64,000 nt of DNA, taken from positions 14,981-78,980 of the forward strand of contig JAISYH010000018.1 of the NCBI GenBank assembly GCA_031270015.1, in the 5' to 3' direction. The DNA is from Burkholderiales bacterium. GTDB taxonomy: Bacteria; Pseudomonadota; Gammaproteobacteria; Burkholderiales; Casimicrobiaceae. A program made the translations under genes and the position numbers. This document shows positions 1,210 through 21,090 of the stretch, in pieces. Position 1 is the first letter of the stretch. The number at the start of each line of letters is the position of its first letter. A model generated the notes under the pieces. That model did not search any database. It was not told where the DNA came from and was given only the letters and a program-made list of their open reading frames with translations.

Positions 1210-2535
1210 ATGATTTCTCCTCTTTCCCACGAAATTTTGATCGTTGACGATGAGGCAGGGATTCGAGAACTGCTCTCGGAAATTCTCGCCGACGAAGGAT
1301 ATCGCGTTGTGCTCGCCGAAAACGCGCGGGAAGCGCGCGCCTACCGGCAACAAAAAGCGCCGGCATTGGTGCTGCTCGATATTTGGATGCCCGATACCGA
1401 CGGTGTGACGTTGTTGCGCGAATGGGTCAGCGCCGAATTGCTGACCATGCCGGTAGTCATGATGTCTGGTCACGCCACGATAGAAACCGCCGTGAGCGCG
1501 ACCCGTATCGGCGCGTTTGATTTTTTGGAAAAGCCGATCGGCTTAGAGAAATTGCTGACTACCGTCCGCCGCGCATTACGCGCCGCCGCCGAAAACAATA
1601 CTGTCTCCGTTTCTTTATCGCAATTAGGCAACAGTTCCGCGATGCGTGCGCTGGAACACGCCATGATCAATTTGGTTCGCGCTTGCGCCCCGATTCTGAT
1701 TCTCGGCGAAAGCGGTTCAGGACACGCAACCGCTGCGCGTGCGCTACAAAACGCGCAACTGCCTTGGGTTACCATCACCCCACAACGCCTTGCCGGTCAT
1801 CCGTTATCGTTGTTGGAAGAGGCGCGTGAAGGCATTTTATATTGTCCCGAAATCGGTCAATTGACCCGCGTCGAACAAAAAGGTTTGCTGTTTCTATTGT
1901 CCCGCTTTGCGAAATACGAAATTACGTTAGTCTGTACCAGCAGCGAGCCGCTGGGCAACATGGCGGCGGAAGGCGAATTCGATCCGACATTGTTGTCGCA
2001 ATTGTCCGCAGGCATCCTGATTTTGCCGCCTTTGCGCGAACACCGCGAAGACATTCCTCTGCTGATCGAGCGAAAATGGAAAGAGCTTACCGAAAAAAGC
2101 GCAGTGGACGGTTCGTTGTTGGCGTCGTTGTCTCCCGAAGCGTTGACCGTTCTCAGCAATGCTTATTGGCCCGGCAACATCGACCAACTTTATTATGTTT
2201 TGGAAAATTTGGCGCTGCTTAAAACCGAAGTCAACGATGTGATGACCCGGGCGGTGCTTGGTGAATCTTTGGTATATCAAAATAAAGGCGTGCCGCCGGA
2301 GATTACCGCGCAATTTCTCGAATTACCGTTGCGCGACGCCAGAGAAGCGTTCGAACGCTATTATTTTGAACGTCTTTTGGCGACCGAGCGCAACAATATG
2401 AGCAAAATCGCCGAACATGCCGGCTTGGAGCGCACGCACTTATACCGAAAATTGAAACAGCTCGATATTCGCTTTACCCGCCGACAGTCGCGTTTTTCAA
2501 GAAAAACGCGCGCCACGACACCGCACAGCGATTGA
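1210..2535 (+). CDS. ntrX: NtrX-like response regulator (REC domain, degenerate sigma54-activator-type AAA+ domain, Fis-type HTH)
   Basis: REC motifs 'ILIVDDEAGIRELL' and 'LLDIWMPDTDG'. The central domain has Walker A 'GESGSGHAT' with the lysine replaced. C-terminal HTH 'NMSKIAEHAGLERTHLYRKLKQL'. ATG at 1210 was chosen; an in-frame TTG at 1204 is also possible. Confidence 0.75.
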   Translation: MISPLSHEILIVDDEAGIRELLSEILADEGYRVVLAENAREARAYRQQKAPALVLLDIWMPDTDGVTLLREWVSAELLTMPVVMMSGHATIETAVSATRIGAFDFLEKPIGLEKLLTTVRRALRAAAENNTVSVSLSQLGNSSAMRALEHAMINLVRACAPILILGESGSGHATAARALQNAQLPWVTITPQRLAGHPLSLLEEAREGILYCPEIGQLTRVEQKGLLFLLSRFAKYEITLVCTSSEPLGNMAAEGEFDPTLLSQLSAGILILPPLREHREDIPLLIERKWKELTEKSAVDGSLLASLSPEALTVLSNAYWPGNIDQLYYVLENLALLKTEVNDVMTRAVLGESLVYQNKGVPPEITAQFLELPLRDAREAFERYYFERLLATERNNMSKIAEHAGLERTHLYRKLKQLDIRFTRRQSRFSRKTRATTPHSD

Positions 2536-2537
2536 CT

Positions 2538-4976
<2,439 letters not shown>

Positions 4977-5045
4977 TCATGCTTGCAATGAACGTCTCTT
5001 GATAAGAGACCGTTCATCATCAATGTAAATCTTGAAAACCGTGCG

Positions 5046-6152
5046 TTAAATTCGCATCGGCATCACGACATATTTATAATCCTTTTGATCAGGGTTAGTA
5101 ATCAACGCGCTATCGTTTACTGAACCAAATGAAAATACGACATGACCACTAGTCAATCTCTGCAAAACATCTAAAAGATACGTAATATTAAAACCTATAT
5201 TCAAATCATCTCCATCGTAAACAACTTCGAGTTGTTCTTCGGCTTCTTCCTGTTCATTATTACTACAAATAATTTTAAGCTCGTTTTTGGTCAAAACCAG
5301 ATGAACACCACGCACTTTTTCATTAGATAAGATCGCCGCGCGTTGTAACGCGGCAAATAATAATAAACGATCAATATTAACGTGGCACGTATAACCAGAA
5401 GGGATTACTCTGTTATAGTCAGGAAATTTACCATCAACAACTTTGGAAATGATTTCTATTGACGCGAAAGAAAAACGAACACAATTACTGAAAATCTCTA
5501 AATGAACTATTTCCTCTTCATTGTCAGTCAATAACTTACTCAGTTCTATCACCGTTTTTCTCGGCAAGATAACTTCTTTATGATTAAACGATCCTTCCAC
5601 AGGTAATTGCGCCCAAGCCAAACGATGTCCATCCGTTGCTACTAATTGTAAAGTACTTCCATCGATCACCCATAACATCCCATTAAGATAATAACGAATA
5701 TCTTGTTGCGCCATCGCAAATTCCACTTGCCTCAACAAAGCGCGAAGATTTTTTTGTGTCAAAGAGATTTTGATTGATTGATCATCACCAGTAGACAATC
5801 TTGGATAATCCGTAGCAGGTAATGTTTGTAAATGGAAACGCGAACGTCCTGCTTGAACATTCATTTTACTGCCTTGCGTATCCAGAGAAATCTGCGCGCC
5901 TTCCGGTAGCGCTCTCAACAAATCCTGAAATTTACGCGCCGAAACGGTAATTGCCTGCTCTTCAGAAACAGGAATATCGCAAAACGCTGAAACTTGGATT
6001 TCCATATCCATCGCTGTCATCCAGAAACGCTGACCGCGCTGTTCAAGTAAAACATTGGAGAGAATGGGTAACGTATGTTTACGTTCCACGATTCCAGAAA
6101 CCGACGATAAAGGCTTAAGGATGTCTTCGCGCGCTATCTTGTTTAATTTCAT
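5046..6152 (-). CDS. dnaN: DNA polymerase III beta sliding clamp
   Basis: 368 aa. N-terminus 'MKLNKIAREDILKPLSSVSGIVERKHTLPILSNVLLE', C-terminus 'YVVMPMRI'. It lies directly upstream of gyrB on the same strand. Confidence 0.95.
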   Translation of the reverse strand: MKLNKIAREDILKPLSSVSGIVERKHTLPILSNVLLEQRGQRFWMTAMDMEIQVSAFCDIPVSEEQAITVSARKFQDLLRALPEGAQISLDTQGSKMNVQAGRSRFHLQTLPATDYPRLSTGDDQSIKISLTQKNLRALLRQVEFAMAQQDIRYYLNGMLWVIDGSTLQLVATDGHRLAWAQLPVEGSFNHKEVILPRKTVIELSKLLTDNEEEIVHLEIFSNCVRFSFASIEIISKVVDGKFPDYNRVIPSGYTCHVNIDRLLLFAALQRAAILSNEKVRGVHLVLTKNELKIICSNNEQEEAEEQLEVVYDGDDLNIGFNITYLLDVLQRLTSGHVVFSFGSVNDSALITNPDQKDYKYVVMPMRI

Positions 6153-6248
6153 GAATTTATATAAATAGTAATAGATAATAAAGGAAGCTTTTTCTGAGGA
6201 TATCCATCAAACAATGTAAAAGAACAAAGGGTTGCAAGATATTTTCCT

Positions 6249-6257
6249 TGTGGATAA
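6249..6257 (-). promoter_or_regulatory. Perfect DnaA box (TGTGGATAA, the reverse complement of TTATCCACA) in the dnaN-mnmG spacer
   Basis: Exact 9-mer read at 6249-6257, about 100 nt upstream of the dnaN start. Two-mismatch relatives lie at about 6317-6325 and 6343-6351. Confidence 0.5.
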
Positions 6258-6579
6258 ATCATGAGTCAAATCGGGAAAATTTCTTCATTGTTTGGAATGT
6301 TTCCGCAAAAGGAGATTAACCCACAGATTATACCGTAATGTCTGTGTATCAGGAGGATATCAGCGCGATTTATCGGGTAATTCGAGTTCAATATAGTGTA
6401 TGTATTTTTTCTAAGAGGGATCAGAAGCAACAAGGAAAAAATACACGATAAAATGATTATTCTGATATTTTTTGATTGATCAAACCAAGTAAAATACTAA
6501 GTGGAAAGAACTTTATTTTGAAACAGAAATATGATAATAAAATATTTTATTAATAGTGAGTACATACTTACTTTTATTT

Positions 6580-6599
6580 AATGTTTCACGTGAAACATT
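6580..6599. repeat. Perfect 20-bp palindrome AATGTTTCACGTGAAACATT
   Basis: Read directly; it is self-complementary over all 20 nt and is followed by T residues on the + strand. It ends 47 nt before the mnmG ATG (6647). Confidence 0.9.
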
Positions 6600-6646
6600 T
6601 TTACTGATCATTAAAAATGGTTGAAAGAAGAATTGATAATTGAATT

Positions 6647-8578
6647 ATGCTGTATCCCGATAGTTTTGATGTTATCGTCGTTGGTGGTGGACACGCTGGA
6701 ACGGAAGCGGCGTTAGCATCTGCAAGAATGGGCGCGAAAACGTTGCTATTGACGCATAATCTCGAAACATTAGGGCAAATGTCTTGTAATCCTTCAATTG
6801 GTGGGATAGGTAAAGGACATTTAGTTAAGGAGGTAGACTCTCTGGGCGGCGCGATGGCGCAAGCGGCAGATGAAGCAGGGATCCAAATTCGAATTTTAAA
6901 CGCGAGTAAAGGCGCGGCAGTACGAGCGACACGCGCGCAAATGGACCGCATTCTATATAAAAAAGCAATTCGCGGGCGCTTGGAAAATCAGAAAAATCTT
7001 CGATTGTTTGCGCACGCAGTAGATAGTTTGCTACTAGAAAACGGCGAGATCAAAGGTGTTGAAACGCAAATCGGCGTTACTTTTCGCGCGCATTCTGTGA
7101 TTTTAACGACTGGAACATTTCTCGCCGGATTGGCGCACATAGGATTGAGTAACTATCAAGCCGGACGCGCCGGCGATCCTGCCGCGTATCCATTAGCGCA
7201 ACAACTACGAATAAGTGGATTACCGATCGGTCGCCTAAAAACGGGAACGCCGCCGCGCCTCGACGGAAAAACGATAGACTTTTCTAAATTGAAAGAACAA
7301 GTTGGCGATAAACCGGCGCCGGTTTTTTCCTTTCTGGGGAACGCTGTGCCGCGCCCGCGCCAAGTTTCTTGCTGGATTACCCACACCAATGAAAAAACGC
7401 ATGACATCATTCGCGGTGGTTTGGATCGTTCGCCGCTATATTCGGGTGTGATTACCAGTGTTGGACCGCGCTACTGTCCGTCGATAGAAGACAAAATCGT
7501 CCGTTTCGCGCAGAGAAAATCACACCAAATTTTTTTAGAACCGGAAGGTCTGGATACGCACGAAATTTATCCGAACGGAATTTCTACGTCATTACCTTTC
7601 GATGTTCAGCTTGACGTCGTGCGCTCCATTACTGGTTGTGAAAACGCGCACATTCTGCGCCCAGGTTATGCGATCGAGTACGATTACGTCGATCCTAGAG
7701 CGTTGAAGTCGTCGCTAGAAAGCAAAATGTTCGCGGGTTTGTTTTTGGCGGGACAAATCAATGGGACAACGGGTTATGAAGAAGCCGCAGCGCTGGGTTT
7801 GCTGGCAGGAATCAATGCTGTTTTGCGACTGCGCGGCGAAACAGCGTGGTCGCCGCGCCGCGCCGAAGCCTATTTGGGCGTGATGATTGATGACCTGATT
7901 ACGCGCGGCGTCACCGAACCGTATCGGATGTTTACCTCGCGTGCCGAGTATAGGCTGCAACTGCGTGAAGACAATGCCGATATGCGGCTTACCGAACAAG
8001 GGCGAAAACTCGGCTTAATCGACGATACGCGCTGGAACGCTTTTTCGCGCAAGCGCGACGCCGTACACACAGAAATCGAACGCCTCAAATCAACATGGAT
8101 CAATCCGCAAATTATCGAAAAGTTGAGCGGCGATGGAAGGAATACAGAAACCATTACCGTCGTTGAAAAACTGCTGGGCAAAATACCCGAAAGAGAATAT
8201 GCTTTCGCTGACTTATTGCGTCGCCCGTCGATAGACTACGCCGCGCTGATGTGCTTGCCAGGCGCCGGAACGGGCGTCGAAAACGCGGAAGTCGCAGAAC
8301 AAGTCGAGATTAGCATCAAATACGAAGGCTATATTGCGCGGCAGAAGGAAGAGATTCAACGTGCCGCGCAGCAAGAAGAAACACTATTGCCTGCGGATCT
8401 TGATTACTGTGATGTCAAAGGATTGTCGAACGAAGTTTGCCAAAAGCTGAATCAGCATAAACCAGAAACCATCGGACAAGCGGCGCGGATTTCCGGTGTC
8501 ACGCCGGCGGCGATTTCACTATTGCTTGTGCACCTGAAAAAATGCAACGCAAAAATGAGCAATGATTTTTTGCCATGA
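6647..8578 (+). CDS. mnmG: tRNA uridine-5-carboxymethylaminomethyl modification enzyme MnmG (GidA)
   Basis: 643 aa with FAD fingerprint '[16 protein letters not shown]', plus '[18 protein letters not shown]' and '[10 protein letters not shown]'. Confidence 0.97.
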
Positions 8579-15521: not shown

Positions 15522-16961
15522 TTATTGCAATGCTTTTTTGAGCAATTCGTTAACTTGCGCCGGATTGGCTTTGCCGCGCGATGCTTTCATGATTTGACCG
15601 ACTAACGAATTGAACGCTTTTTCTTTGCCGGCGCGGTATTCTTCGACCGCTGCGGGATGCGCCGCCAGCACATCAGCGATGATTTTTTCTAATGCGCCAA
15701 CATCGGAGATCTGTTGCAAACCGAGTTCGGCGATGATCTCGGCGACGCTTGCCGAAGTATTTGCGTTCTCCCAGAGTTTTTGCAATATTTCTTTTGCGCC
15801 TTTGTTGGAAAGCGTTCCGTTTTTGATGTTGATGATTAGCTCGGCTAATTGCGCCGATGAAACGGGAATGTCGGCGATTTCGATTTCTTCGCGGTTCAAC
15901 GCAGCGGATACATCGCCGAGCATCCAATTCGCCGCGATTTTCGCCGCGTCTTTGCCGGTGATGGTGACGACTTCTTCAAAATAACGCGCAAAATCGAGGC
16001 TATACGTCAACTGCGCCGCATCATATTCGGGCAGCGCGTGATCAAGGATCAGTCGCCGCCGCATCGCTTCCGGTAATTCCGGCATTTCATTTTTGACGCG
16101 AGCGATCCACGCATCGTCGATCACCAGCGGCGGCAAATCGGGGTCGGGAAAATAGCGATAATCCTGCGCATCTTCTTTGCTGCGCATCGAGCGCGTTTCG
16201 CCGCGATCGGGATCGAACAACCGCGTTTCTTGTACGACTTTGCCGCCATCTTCGATTAATTCGATCTGTCGTTGCACCTCAAATTCGATGGCTTTTTCGA
16301 GAAAACGGAAGCTGTTCAAATTTTTGATTTCGCAGCGCGTGCCCAAAAGCTCGCCGACGCGCCGCACCGACACATTGGCGTCACAGCGGAAACTGCCTTC
16401 CTGCATGTTGCCATCGCAAATATCGATCCAGCGCACCAGGGCATGCAACGCGCGAGCATACGCTACTGCTTCTTCGGCGCTGCGCATATCCGGCTCGGTG
16501 ACGATTTCGAGCAACGGCGTACCAGCGCGGTTGAGATCGATGCCGGTCATTCCGTGAAAATCTTCGTGCAGACTTTTACCGGCGTCTTCCTCGAGATGCG
16601 CGCGCGTCAAATGCACGGTTTTTTCTCCAGATTTGGTCTGGATCGTCAAGCTGCCGCCCAGGACGATCGGAATTTCGTATTGACTGATCTGATAGCCTTT
16701 TGGCAAATCGGGATAGAAGTAATTTTTACGCGCGAACACGCTGGTGGTATTGATCGTCGCGTCGATTGCCAGCCCAAAACGGATCGCGCACTCGATCGCG
16801 CCGCGATTGGCAACCGGCAATACGCCGGGCAGCGCGAGATCTACCGCGCAGGCTTGAGTGTTGGGTTCGGCGCCGAATGTCGTCGATGCGCCCGAAAATA
16901 TTTTTGACTGTGTGGCAAGCTGCGCGTGCGTTTCCAGTCCGATAACGATTTCCCAGGTCAT
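15522..16961 (-). CDS. gatB: Asp/Glu-tRNA(Asn/Gln) amidotransferase subunit B
   Basis: 479 aa with '[15 protein letters not shown]', 'LPGVLPV', '[15 protein letters not shown]' and a C-terminal YqeY-like tail. Confidence 0.95.
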
Positions 16962-17734
16962 GTATTTTTCCTTGAGGACGTTTTGGTCGTCGCAGGGTTT
17001 TTCTCAGCAGAGTTCAACTTGACAAGTGTTGACCAGTCAATATCTCCATTATCTAGGCAGAACCGATTAAGAAAATCCCGAGTAAAAGAATTGCAGATTC
17101 TCTCGTATGCCAAGAGAAAAGCCTCGTTCTTTTCTTTAGCGCGATGTCCCAATGATTTAATAAGATCAAGATAAAGAGAAGGACGTCCGGAAATCAAAGA
17201 CCAGAAGGGCTCTCCGCAGAGTTTAAGATAACCATCTTTTTCTGGTTTGTTATCTCGACCGTAACAACAACCATTAATAGCAACAATGTGCTTTTTTGAG
17301 CTATTGCCGCCTAAAATTCGGTAAGCTTTTTTGAAATTTTCTTCCATACGACGAATCTGTTGGCTGTTGCCCCAATTGGGTCCGGATTTAATGGAAACAA
17401 GATAATAAATTTTGGCGCGGGAAAACTCGAGATCTATTCCTTCCGCGCTGGATTTTTTCCCGTTAAAGGATTGTGAACAGGTGTAAACAGCGACTTTTTC
17501 CAAAAAATCACCAAACAAAATTTCCTCCCGAGAGGAAAGATATGCGGAAAGCAAACTCTCAATGATTTCCGCGGCGGTGTTTAAATGCTTGGCGCGGAAC
17601 AGGTAGGGGTTTTTTTGCAACAGTATTCTATCAAGCCTGAGCTCATTCAAACTTCTCAGACGGTTTTCATGAAACTCGTGAATATTTTTTTCGATGAAAG
17701 AGCTTAGCTTTTTTTTAAAAGGATCAATTGCCAT
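16958..17734 (-). CDS. Putative type II restriction endonuclease (resembles the Eco47II/PmeII type), uninterrupted ORF
   Basis: 'KNPYLFRAK', '[26 protein letters not shown]' (a D...(S/E)xK arrangement compatible with a PD-(D/E)xK core) and 'INGCCYG'. G+C is low. The stop overlaps the gatB ATG as ATGA (16961-16958). An alternative upstream ATG lies at 17776. The family assignment is from memory and was not searched. Confidence 0.55.
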
Positions 17735-18081
17735 AACTCGCTCGCTTTTCAAAAAGAGCATATTGTTTTTCTTCAAAGAGAGTTTTTGCCTGAGCGCAAT
17801 ATTCCGCCAGTATTTCTATACCAACAGCATTCCTTCCTAGTGTGCTCGCGGCTTTTAACGTTATTCCCGAACCCATAAACGGGTTTAGTACCCAGTCACC
17901 CATTGGCGCCATAACATTTTCCTGGTTCATCTTGAATTTCCGTGATTTTGTGAAATGCAAAAGCCTTTCCCCGTTTTCTGCTTTTTCTTTGATGTTCAAC
18001 ACAAAGGAGCCGGAAGATTTGAGGAAAGCGTTTTAACACGTTTTCGCAATCGCCTTGAAAAATATTTGTTTCAATGCTCAT
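17724..18081 (-). pseudogene. Remnant of a beta-class (N4-C/N6-A) DNA methyltransferase, frameshifted and internally deleted
   Basis: It starts '[20 protein letters not shown]', with its ATG overlapping the gatA TGA as ATGA (18081-18078). A second frame reads 'SGSFVLNIKE...GDWVLNPFMGSGITLKAASTLGRNAVGIEILAEY' (motif I). No (D/S)PPY motif occurs in any frame, and only 358 nt remain. Confidence 0.65.
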
Positions 18082-19550
18082 GAAATTCCTTGTTTGGGCG
18101 CTTTGGTATGCCAATCCGTCGCTTGTTGGAATTGATGGGCGACATTGAGGAGACGCGCTTCGCTGAAATAATTGCCTTGCAACTGCAAACCAATCGGCAA
18201 GCCGTTCGAATTGAAACCACACGGAATCGACATTGCGGGCAATCCCGCCAGATTCGCGCCGATTGTAAAAATATCGTTCAAATACATTTTGATCGGATCG
18301 TCGATTTGCTCGCCGAGACGTGGCGCGGTGGTCGGCACGGTGGGTCCGGCAAGAATATCGCATTGCGTGAAAGCTTTTTGGAAATCGTCGGCAACCAGCC
18401 GTCGCACTTTTTGCGCTTTTAGATAATAAGCATCGTAATAGCCGTGCGAGAGGACATAGGTGCCGATCAGAATGCGGCGTTTTACTTCCGTACCAAAACC
18501 TTCCGCTCGCGTTTTTTTGTACATGTCGAGTAAGTCGGTATATTTTTGGGCGCGGTATCCATAGCGCACACCATCGAAACGCGACAAATTGGACGACGCT
18601 TCCGCCGGCGCCAAGACATAATAAACAGGCACGGAAAAAGCGATGTTCGGCAACGATAACGGCACGGTGATCGCGCCGAGTTTACGCATGTCGTCAAGCG
18701 CGGCTTCGACGGCGGCGCGAACGGATGTTTCCACGCCATCGTCGAAATATTCCTTTGCCAATCCGATACGTAAACCCTTTAATGGAAGAGCGAGGTCGCG
18801 CGCGTAGTTTTCGCGCGGGCGGTTCAGCGATGTCGAATCGCGGGGATCGTGTCCCGAGATTGCGGCAAGCACGAGCGCGCAATCTTCAGCAGTGCGAGCG
18901 AAAACGCCGGCTTGATCCAAGCTGGACGCGAAAGCGACCATACCGTAACGCGAGCAGATGCCATAAGTGGGTTTGATGCCGCAAATGCCAGTGAATGCCG
19001 CCGGTTGTCGAATGGAACCGCCGGTATCTGAGCCAGTAGCGGCGGGAATCAAACGCGCGGCAACCGCTGCCGCCGAGCCGCCGGAACTGCCGCCCGGCAC
19101 ATAATCGGTATGCCAAGGGTTTTTCACCACGCCAAAGTACGACGTTTCGGTGCTGCCGCCCATTGCGAACTCATCCATCGCCGTTTTGCCGACTAATACC
19201 GTCCCGGCGTCTTTGAGCAAAGTGACGATATGAGCATCGTAAGGCGCAACATAATCGAAAAGCATTTTCGATGAACAAGTCGTGCGCAACCCCTCTGTCA
19301 TGAAAATGTCTTTGTGCGCGATTGGCACGCCGGTGAGCGTTCCGGCTTGTCCGTTCTTGCGGAGCGCGTCCATCGTTCGCGCGGTTTGCCGCGCGCCGTC
19401 ACCGTCAATGCTGATAAAAGCGTTGAGCGTAGGCTGCGCCGCTTCGATTTCCGCCAGCGCGTTTTCGGTCAGCTCCAACGAGGTACATTCGTTTTTCGTC
19501 AGCGCCGCAGACAGCTCGACGACCGTTTTTGTGTTCCAGCTACCGCTCAT
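18078..19550 (-). CDS. gatA: Glu-tRNA(Gln) amidotransferase subunit A
   Basis: 490 aa with the amidase signature '[13 protein letters not shown]' and '[25 protein letters not shown]'. Confidence 0.95.

Positions 19551-19959: not shown

Positions 19960-21090
<1,131 letters not shown>

Follow-up and report, generated by a model that had tools for sequence, protein, structure and literature searches.

A restriction-modification (R-M) cassette lies between gatA and gatB of gatCAB, an essential tRNA-amidotransferase operon, in a 64,000-nt stretch of DNA from a Burkholderiales bacterium (the window). Its methyltransferase gene (M) has been broken by three deletions, whereas the frame of the endonuclease gene (R) that follows is still open. 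We favour, with a probability of roughly 0.6, the reading that this is a silenced endonuclease in a decaying R-M cassette, i.e., a late-stage remnant. When complete, the cassette would have been a promoter-less Type IIP R-M system composed of an M.PvuII-like amino-methyltransferase gene and, behind it, an EcoO109I/PmeII-family endonuclease gene. In the window this system appears to be under dismantling, as M has lost motif IV and two more segments.

A previous account of the same DNA, made from the letters alone (the sequence-only reading), had described an R-M unit of foreign origin at this place, with a dead methylase and an intact nuclease frame. The Type II R-M unit of foreign composition was borne out by matches to the Pfam families PF14511 and PF01555 and by a low G+C content. 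The G+C fraction of the insert is 0.39-0.44, compared with 0.51-0.60 in gatA and gatB (300-nt windows), and the 60-nt counts given earlier (20 of 60 at 17221-17280; 31 of 60 at 18601-18660 in gatA) were reproduced, as were the peptides quoted from both frames.

The methylase remnant

The remnant occupies 358 nt of the minus strand (18081-17724). In the nearest relatives, an 849-nt methyltransferase gene stands before the endonuclease gene; the remnant aligns with this gene base for base and lacks 491 nt of it. The DNA alignment divides what is left into four retained blocks (18081-18026, 18025-17963, 17962-17900 and 17899-17724, all on the minus strand). The first deletion, at the 18026-18025 junction, comprises 131 nt (codons 19-63), shifts the frame and removes the segment DLVITSPPY, which is motif IV. 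The second, at 17963-17962, comprises 132 nt (codons 84-128), and the third, at 17900-17899, 228 nt (codons 149-225). Each deleted stretch is bounded in the sister sequences by short direct repeats (CGTT, GAGCG and GATTGGG). Judged from these repeats, the deletions are of the microhomology type, as would arise from replication slippage, and are unlike assembly errors. Since three mapped deletions with direct repeats are involved, rather than one dubious frameshift, the methylase can be regarded as truly dead, in line with the sequence-only reading; the comparison with intact orthologues supplies the deletions behind that claim.

Only 115 of the 282 codons are left. The N-terminal 'QGDC' block and the sequence 'NPFMGSGIT' are retained, the S-adenosylmethionine (AdoMet) motif carries the substitutions D230N and T237I, and SPPY is gone. 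No [D/N/S]PP[Y/F/W/H] motif was found in the six frames of 17700-18100, which agrees with the earlier statement that a PPY-type motif is absent. The last (C-terminal) block matches PF01555 (E 1.7e-12), and an intact orthologue matches M.PvuII (PDB 1boo) with E 2e-27 over residues 9-267. By sequence, the remnant is that of an M.PvuII-like, beta-class (probably N4-cytosine) DNA methyltransferase gene. Both motif IV and the AdoMet motif are intact in the orthologous loci (L001, L005 and L008-L087); the window has neither a complete system nor motif IV.

A possibly broken M beside an intact R was met in only two of approximately 150 related loci. In these, L103 (567-1404) and L165 (50-857), the methylase match is split over two frames beside an intact endonuclease, which may reflect either M-first decay or sequencing errors in short contigs.

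Identity and fold of the endonuclease

The endonuclease gene encodes 258 codons on the minus strand (17734-16958) and is uninterrupted, as had been claimed. Its true start is the ATG at 17734 and not the TTG at 17776, as shown by the length of an identical protein (P0001, MDR1529264.1, from a Burkholderiales metagenome-assembled genome, MAG) and by the orthologues, which start there. The open reading frame (ORF) had been called nuclease-like from its letters, and profile searches indeed found nuclease homologues: PF14511 (RE_EcoO109I) was matched with E 1e-75 and 254 bits against a cut-off of 22.5, with residues 23-217 covering positions 2-198 of the 198 in the profile. Some of the 6849 homologues of the ORF are named 'PmeII family type II restriction endonuclease' at their source. 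An AlphaFold2 model based on 37 homologues reached a mean local confidence (pLDDT) of 87.2 and a predicted template-modelling score (pTM) of 0.80. When this model was compared with the PDB using Foldseek, the top three matches were EcoO109I chains (1wtd best; E 8e-9 to 2e-8, template-modelling (TM) score 0.55-0.62), the next match having E 4e-3. By profile and predicted fold, the ORF belongs among the Type II restriction endonucleases of the EcoO109I/PmeII family and is presumably of the PD-(D/E)XK type. A phmmer search of the PDB with the ORF gave no match, and NCBIfam and PADLOC held no model matching the endonuclease.

In the alignment of 37 sequences, the ORF keeps all 52 invariant columns, including E70, E71 and D101; K116, which is nearly invariant, and S114, which is the family majority but not invariant, are kept as well. 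These residues make up a putative active site, with E70/E71 on a long helix, D101 just before a strand and S114-x-K116 at the end of the next strand. The assignment was made from spacing and secondary structure by analogy with AvaII (E123, D147 and Q161-x-K163; PMC7337904), and not from a residue-level superposition. A mapping based on sequence was dropped, since the 37-sequence profile matched EcoO109I no better than E 0.002, with the match confined to the flanking helices.

The same endonuclease family is preceded in three related loci (L148, L162 and L164) by a 5-methylcytosine (m5C) methyltransferase, recognised by its PCQ and ENV motifs, with R starting at 5001. From these partners it follows that the endonuclease family swaps methylase class.

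State of the solitary endonuclease

The sequence-only reading had left three options for a nuclease without its methylase: inactive, protected in trans or repurposed. The evidence leans, weakly, towards the first. An active enzyme without methylation would be lethal, so that the endonuclease is most likely already disabled; it would have been disabled, or strongly down-regulated, before M was lost.

Two kinds of change could account for this. One is missense substitution. The window R deviates at 14 of the columns that are conserved in at least 80% of 80 sequences, compared with a mean of 4.8 in the 79 relatives (standard deviation 2.6, maximum 13). Of the 94 columns with at least 90% conservation, six differ in the window R, through R40Q, Q69R (beside the helix glutamates), L81V, G167D, E193K and P194S, and this rate resembles that of the dead M remnant (4 of 41). 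The other is loss of the Shine-Dalgarno sequence. The Shine-Dalgarno-like GAGGAG of the sister sequences reads GAAAAG in the window (17735-17755, minus strand), and the best match to AGGAGG is three of six positions, compared with five of six in L001, L005, L008 and L041 and six of six in L022. The substitutions R40Q, Q69R, G167D, E193K and P194S, together with the loss of the Shine-Dalgarno sequence, are the candidate causes of disablement.

A third line of evidence comes from possible recognition sites. EcoO109I (RG^GNCCY; PDB 1wtd/1wte) recognises RGGNCCY (PMC7337904), and PmeII recognises GGWCC (10.1101/2021.02.10.430591). The observed/expected ratio (O/E) of GGWCC is 0.62 in the window (P = 0.003), 0.18 in the sisters that carry M and R, 0.36 in other gat-embedded loci and 0.07-0.32 in the relatives with an empty junction. 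The nuclease gene itself holds a GGWCC site (GGACC, 17379-17383, plus strand) in the codons of the invariant S-G-P motif; no GGWCC is present in the nuclease gene of the 10 relatives of the gat-linked clade (nine at gatA/gatB and L030).

Several observations weigh against a silenced enzyme. R keeps the putative active-site residues (E70/E71, D101, S114 and K116) along with all 52 invariant columns, and most of its deviations are conservative or common to the sisters. Relative-rate tests of the Tajima type were significant with some outgroups only and are not used as evidence. R has no indel, compared with three in the 849 nt of M; approximately 2.7 would be expected at the rate of M, the probability of none at all being ~0.07, and the indel-free frame hints at some protection. 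The GGWCC argument is also soft, because the recognition site is not established and GGW is not avoided at the invariant Gly-Pro codons across the family: in 55% of the genes, the Gly of the invariant SGP motif is encoded by GGW, the same as the background. Finally, the methylase search covers 64 kb of the genome only.

An attempt to read the recognition site from palindrome avoidance was rejected as proof. GGWCC is depleted in betaproteobacterial loci (O/E ~0.4) and in the pooled loci (0.64), but GGCC, GATC and CTAG are depleted equally or more, and GGW is not avoided. GGCC is nearly missing from the window (1-64000), which has 17 GGCC sites against 246 expected under a maximal-order Markov model, a ratio of 0.07, compared with 0.5-0.6 in the closest relatives. 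This scarcity points to strong restriction pressure of the HaeIII type in the lineage, and it comes without a methyltransferase motif in the window.

The main competing explanation, which we consider rather unlikely, is that the endonuclease is active and that the genome is protected in trans by a methyltransferase encoded beyond the window (e.g., an m5C enzyme, or one of broader specificity such as GGNCC). In that case, the M of the cassette would have become redundant and decayed, and R would still function in defence, expressed as part of the gat operon. The open R frame with its invariant and putative catalytic residues, the confident EcoO109I-like model and the contrast between three deletions in M and none in R all agree with it, as does the persisting under-representation of GGWCC. 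Protection by an unrelated methylase is realistic, because the three relatives with m5C partners, like PmeII, show that the family is naturally paired with such enzymes. On the other side, no methyltransferase motif was found in the ORFs of at least 80 aa of the 64-kb window, R deviates at conserved columns beyond all 79 relatives and at approximately the rate of the dead M, and the Shine-Dalgarno sequence in front of it is degraded. All related groups avoid GGWCC more strongly than the window does, and R itself contains such a site. Taken together, these points favour the silenced endonuclease.

The cassette lineage in other Betaproteobacteria

The sequence-only reading treated the insert as a one-off. 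It proved to belong to a lineage of betaproteobacterial cassettes found repeatedly at this junction and also at junctions within other essential operons. The two nearest homologues of the endonuclease (63-64% identical; L001 and L005) lie in loci with mreBCD and the order gatC-gatA-M-R-gatB, with an intact M of 282 aa. In a survey of one genome per species, which gave 80 loci, M was found directly 5' of R in all 80, whatever the genomic context. The pair lies between gatA and gatB in seven of these: L008, L012, L022, L023 (Gallionella), L041 (Accumulibacter), L048 (Burkholderiales) and L079. Together with L001 and L005, an intact M-R pair is thus present at the gatA/gatB junction in at least nine other betaproteobacterial lineages.

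In a tree of concatenated M and R, all gat-embedded cassettes fall into one betaproteobacterial clade. The trees of R, of M and of GatA+GatB agree on the main groups, and the window is sister to L001/L005. The carriers of the lineage at this one junction have diverged to the level of families or orders (GatA 60-87% identical), and M, at 71-90% identity across lineages, is better conserved than GatA/GatB (55-88%). Synonymous sites are saturated at 63% amino-acid identity, so that the ratio of nonsynonymous to synonymous rates (dN/dS) is unusable. The G+C content at third codon positions is 12-42 points (mostly 20-30) lower in the cassette than in the gat genes in every lineage and varies in step with the host, which points to a long association and not to repeated fresh import from a single distant donor. 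That the insert might be a conserved, non-R-M component of gatCAB operons was rejected: both genes belong to well-characterised R-M families, M stands 5' of R in 80 of 80 loci, and most family members outside Betaproteobacteria are free of operons.

In Ca. Glomeribacter gigasporarum BEG1, a fungal endosymbiont, ftsA and ftsZ are followed by M, R and gatB (L030; LXRJ01000003.1, 1593-7369). As gatA is not adjacent, the cassette has stayed linked to gatB through rearrangement.

Related cassettes occupy other operons. Nested in the gat clade are pairs between nusB and thiL in Rhodocyclales MAGs (L009, ~2500-4096; L011, 1631-3224; L039, 4157-5747), in a ribBA-ribH-nusB-thiL-pgpA cluster with junctions of 0-10 nt, and pairs directly after a topoisomerase gene (L013 and L075). 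A second betaproteobacterial clade has the pair between leuS and lptE (L056, ~4139-5729; L060, 2739-4320; L068, 4133-5714); its carriers are a Betaproteobacteria MAG and Hydrogenophilales and Sulfuricella MAGs, and the endonuclease stop lies at most 4 nt from the lptE start. Junctions in the relatives measure 0-18 nt, often with ATGA or TAATG overlaps, and in most gat-embedded relatives the R stop overlaps the gatB start. Of the 97 loci that could be evaluated, 16 have tight junctions on both sides, and these are mostly from Betaproteobacteria; in other groups, the pair is for the most part free-standing and has ordinary spacers. The lineage thus appears to dwell inside essential betaproteobacterial operons, most often at the gatA/gatB stop/start junction.

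In L008 (JBFMCR010000041.1, Pseudomonadota MAG198, 5990-7830), a second R-M pair with overlapping genes, PF01555 and RE_XcyI, lies behind the first. From this stacked pair, the gatA/gatB junction acts as an R-M hotspot. Other cargo at the junction is a LysE transporter gene in L022 and a DUF3050 gene in L079.

A more far-reaching proposal, which we hold to be unlikely, is that the M-R lineage represents a selfish element of a distinct kind, adapted to the points in essential operons where stop and start codons meet (gatA/gatB, nusB/thiL and leuS/lptE). Such an element would borrow the operon promoter and translational coupling for the expression of M before R. Its conserved flanks, lethal to delete, would protect it from imprecise deletion and would also provide the homology arms by which it spreads from one species to another. 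The endonuclease in the window would then outlive its methylase as a coupling link to gatB or under protection in trans.

Presence and absence at the junction

According to the sequence-only reading, the unit had become fixed in the operon and could not easily be lost. The comparison of relatives does not support this. Intact M genes are present in the nine occupied lineages. The six closest relatives by GatB (76-84% identical; L169-L174) have an empty junction, where gatA runs into gatB with an overlap of 4 or 8 nt. The tree of GatA+GatB places the occupied L005 as sister to the empty L174, the occupied L001 as sister to the empty L172, and the window as sister to three empty lineages. The flanks of L005 and L174 are 87-98% identical (mean ~93%) in 150-nt windows, uniformly up to the junction on both sides. 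The cassette in the window is bounded by ATGA on either side, and the empty alleles carry a single ATGA.

Since empty and occupied sisters share flanks of uniform identity, the cassette is gained or lost cleanly on short time scales, and its presence is polymorphic among relatives. The simplest mechanism is exchange of occupied and empty alleles through the conserved flanks by homologous recombination, and it is probably in this way that the cassette comes and goes.

One locus (L168, 5001-6998) encodes a 'GatB' of 665 aa (P0123) that was considered as a fusion of the cassette with gatB. This was rejected, as its C-terminal ~200 residues are doubled; the second copy is 57% identical to residues 280-478 of the window GatB, and it represents either a tandem partial duplication or an assembly artefact.

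Position and coupling in the operon

The minus-strand order gatC, gatA, methylase stub, nuclease ORF and gatB, with ATGA overlaps at both ends of the cassette, is as the sequence-only reading described it. The gatA gene (19550-18078, minus strand; 490 aa) has a TGA that overlaps the ATG of the remnant at 18081-18078, and its product is 73-78% identical to GatA of L001, L005, L169 and L170. At the other end, the TGA of the nuclease gene overlaps the ATG of gatB at 16961-16958; gatB (16961-15522, minus strand; 479 aa) encodes a protein that is 100% identical to P0121, annotated as GatB. The first gene of the operon is gatC (19843-19547, minus strand), an ORF whose counterparts in syntenic loci match PF02686 and are 59-72% identical to it. 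It is divergent from mreB (20044-21090, plus strand), which marks the mreBCD/gatCAB synteny common to the closest related loci.

Overlapping stops and starts are present at all junctions from gatA to gatB: ATGA at 18081-18078, ATGGGTGA at 17903-17896, ATGGCAATTGA at 17734-17724 and ATGA at 16961-16958. The two inner ones involve the open frames of the remnant. The first frame (18081-17896, minus strand; 61 aa) starts at the ATG that overlaps the gatA stop and ends at a TGA (17898-17896) which was made by the frameshift and which lies 5 nt past an in-frame ATG (17903-17901) of the old M frame. The second (17903-17724, minus strand; 59 aa) starts at this ATG and ends at a TGA (17726-17724) that overlaps the nuclease ATG; the overlap of M and R in an intact cassette is 11 nt. 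Re-initiation at the 17903 ATG may preserve a translational-coupling chain, and the overlaps would allow ribosomes to pass from gatA to gatB despite the broken M, although the chain could also be a matter of chance.

A scan of the minus strand from gatC to gatB found no promoter-like site. Terminator-like hairpins show no excess in the region (eight, compared with 9.6 expected from shuffled sequences); one with a T-run lies within the endonuclease ORF (17523-17540, minus strand). With this anatomy, the cassette would draw its transcription from the operon promoter and its translation from coupling with the genes on either side. The R frame could still be open either because little time has elapsed or because the frames still link the translation of gatA to that of gatB via the overlaps.

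The latter idea leads to the suggestion that the endonuclease ORF has been co-opted, as a translated spacer that delivers ribosomes to gatB or as a nuclease that now serves another purpose and can do without a methylase. The overlap kept at every junction from gatA to gatB speaks for it, together with the lack of indels in R compared with three in M and the overlap of the R stop with the gatB start in most gat-embedded relatives. Close relatives, however, have gatA overlapping gatB directly, which implies that no spacer is needed and that clean loss is possible. Moreover, selection for an open frame alone would not preserve 52 invariant residues, and there is no evidence for an alternative activity. 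We therefore regard co-option as improbable.

Least probable is that the deletions in M reflect mis-assembly or a minority haplotype in a population with a dominant intact M-R pair: although the source is a MAG with a single 113.5-kb contig and one record of the protein, and sequencing errors would explain the split M beside an intact R in L103 and L165 equally well, three separate losses (131, 132 and 228 nt), each at a short direct repeat, are typical of replication slippage, whereas short-read errors collapse long repeats, and the retained blocks have substitutions of their own (D230N and T237I in the AdoMet motif) that fit an already non-functional gene.

Significance

R-M systems are usually viewed as short-lived, island-borne and self-promoted modules. 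The lineage described here seems to have diverged alongside an essential operon, gatCAB, over much of the Betaproteobacteria. If this pattern represents a targeting or persistence strategy, it would extend the 'selfish R-M' picture, and the junction would offer a defined and repeatedly sampled locus at which the rates of R-M gain, loss and decay can be followed. The window itself shows an uncommon stage of decay, in which M is destroyed but R is intact, and which bears on whether inactivation of R precedes the loss of M or whether protection in trans permits the reverse. There is also a warning for annotation: genes between gatA and gatB that are labelled 'cytosolic protein' are restriction enzymes. 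Neither the comparative pattern nor the M-first intermediate overturns current views. R-M systems embedded in operons, the enzyme families and this type of location are already known; what goes beyond the earlier account is the recurrent lineage of operon-junction cassettes and its clean polymorphism of presence and absence.

Comparison with known systems

The predicted endonuclease resembles EcoO109I in that its model aligns over the full length (E 8e-9, TM ~0.6), and it shares with both AvaII and EcoO109I the alpha-beta-beta-beta core with a Glu-bearing long helix (PMC7337904). It differs from EcoO109I in sequence, with just 14-16% identity, and its putative third metal-ligand position is Ser (S114-x-K116) and not D/E or the Q of AvaII. 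From PmeII, the cassette differs in the partner methylase, which is an N4/N6 enzyme of the beta class, whereas M.PmeII is an m5C enzyme. The orthologues of the remnant resemble M.PvuII in the beta order of motifs, with motif IV near the N-terminus (SPPY; SPPF in M.PvuII) and the AdoMet motif DPFMGSGTT near the C-terminus; the remnant departs from it in the loss of motif IV and the altered AdoMet motif.

When R-M systems decay, R is usually expected to go first, or M to persist as an orphan. The cassette in the window is like other degenerate or solitary systems in that one partner is a pseudogene, but here it is M that has been destroyed and R whose frame is intact.

With respect to location, operon-like gene clusters are among the places where R-M systems can insert, according to a review (PMC2993543). 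A full-text search of the literature found no paper that places an R-M system at gatA/gatB. The closest precedent is the Type II R-M system NmeDI of Neisseria, which is flanked by pheS and pheT, genes of an essential translation-related operon (PMC7973814). The likeness lies in the same-strand insertion of an R-M system inside an essential operon related to translation: the insert in the window is on the same strand, stands between genes of a conserved operon and has empty sites in relatives. The host operon is gatCAB and the enzyme families are others. In place of intergenic spacers, the gat cassettes have stop/start overlaps, and their lineage, in contrast to NmeDI, recurs at one junction, with sister cassettes at nusB/thiL, at leuS/lptE and behind a topoisomerase gene.

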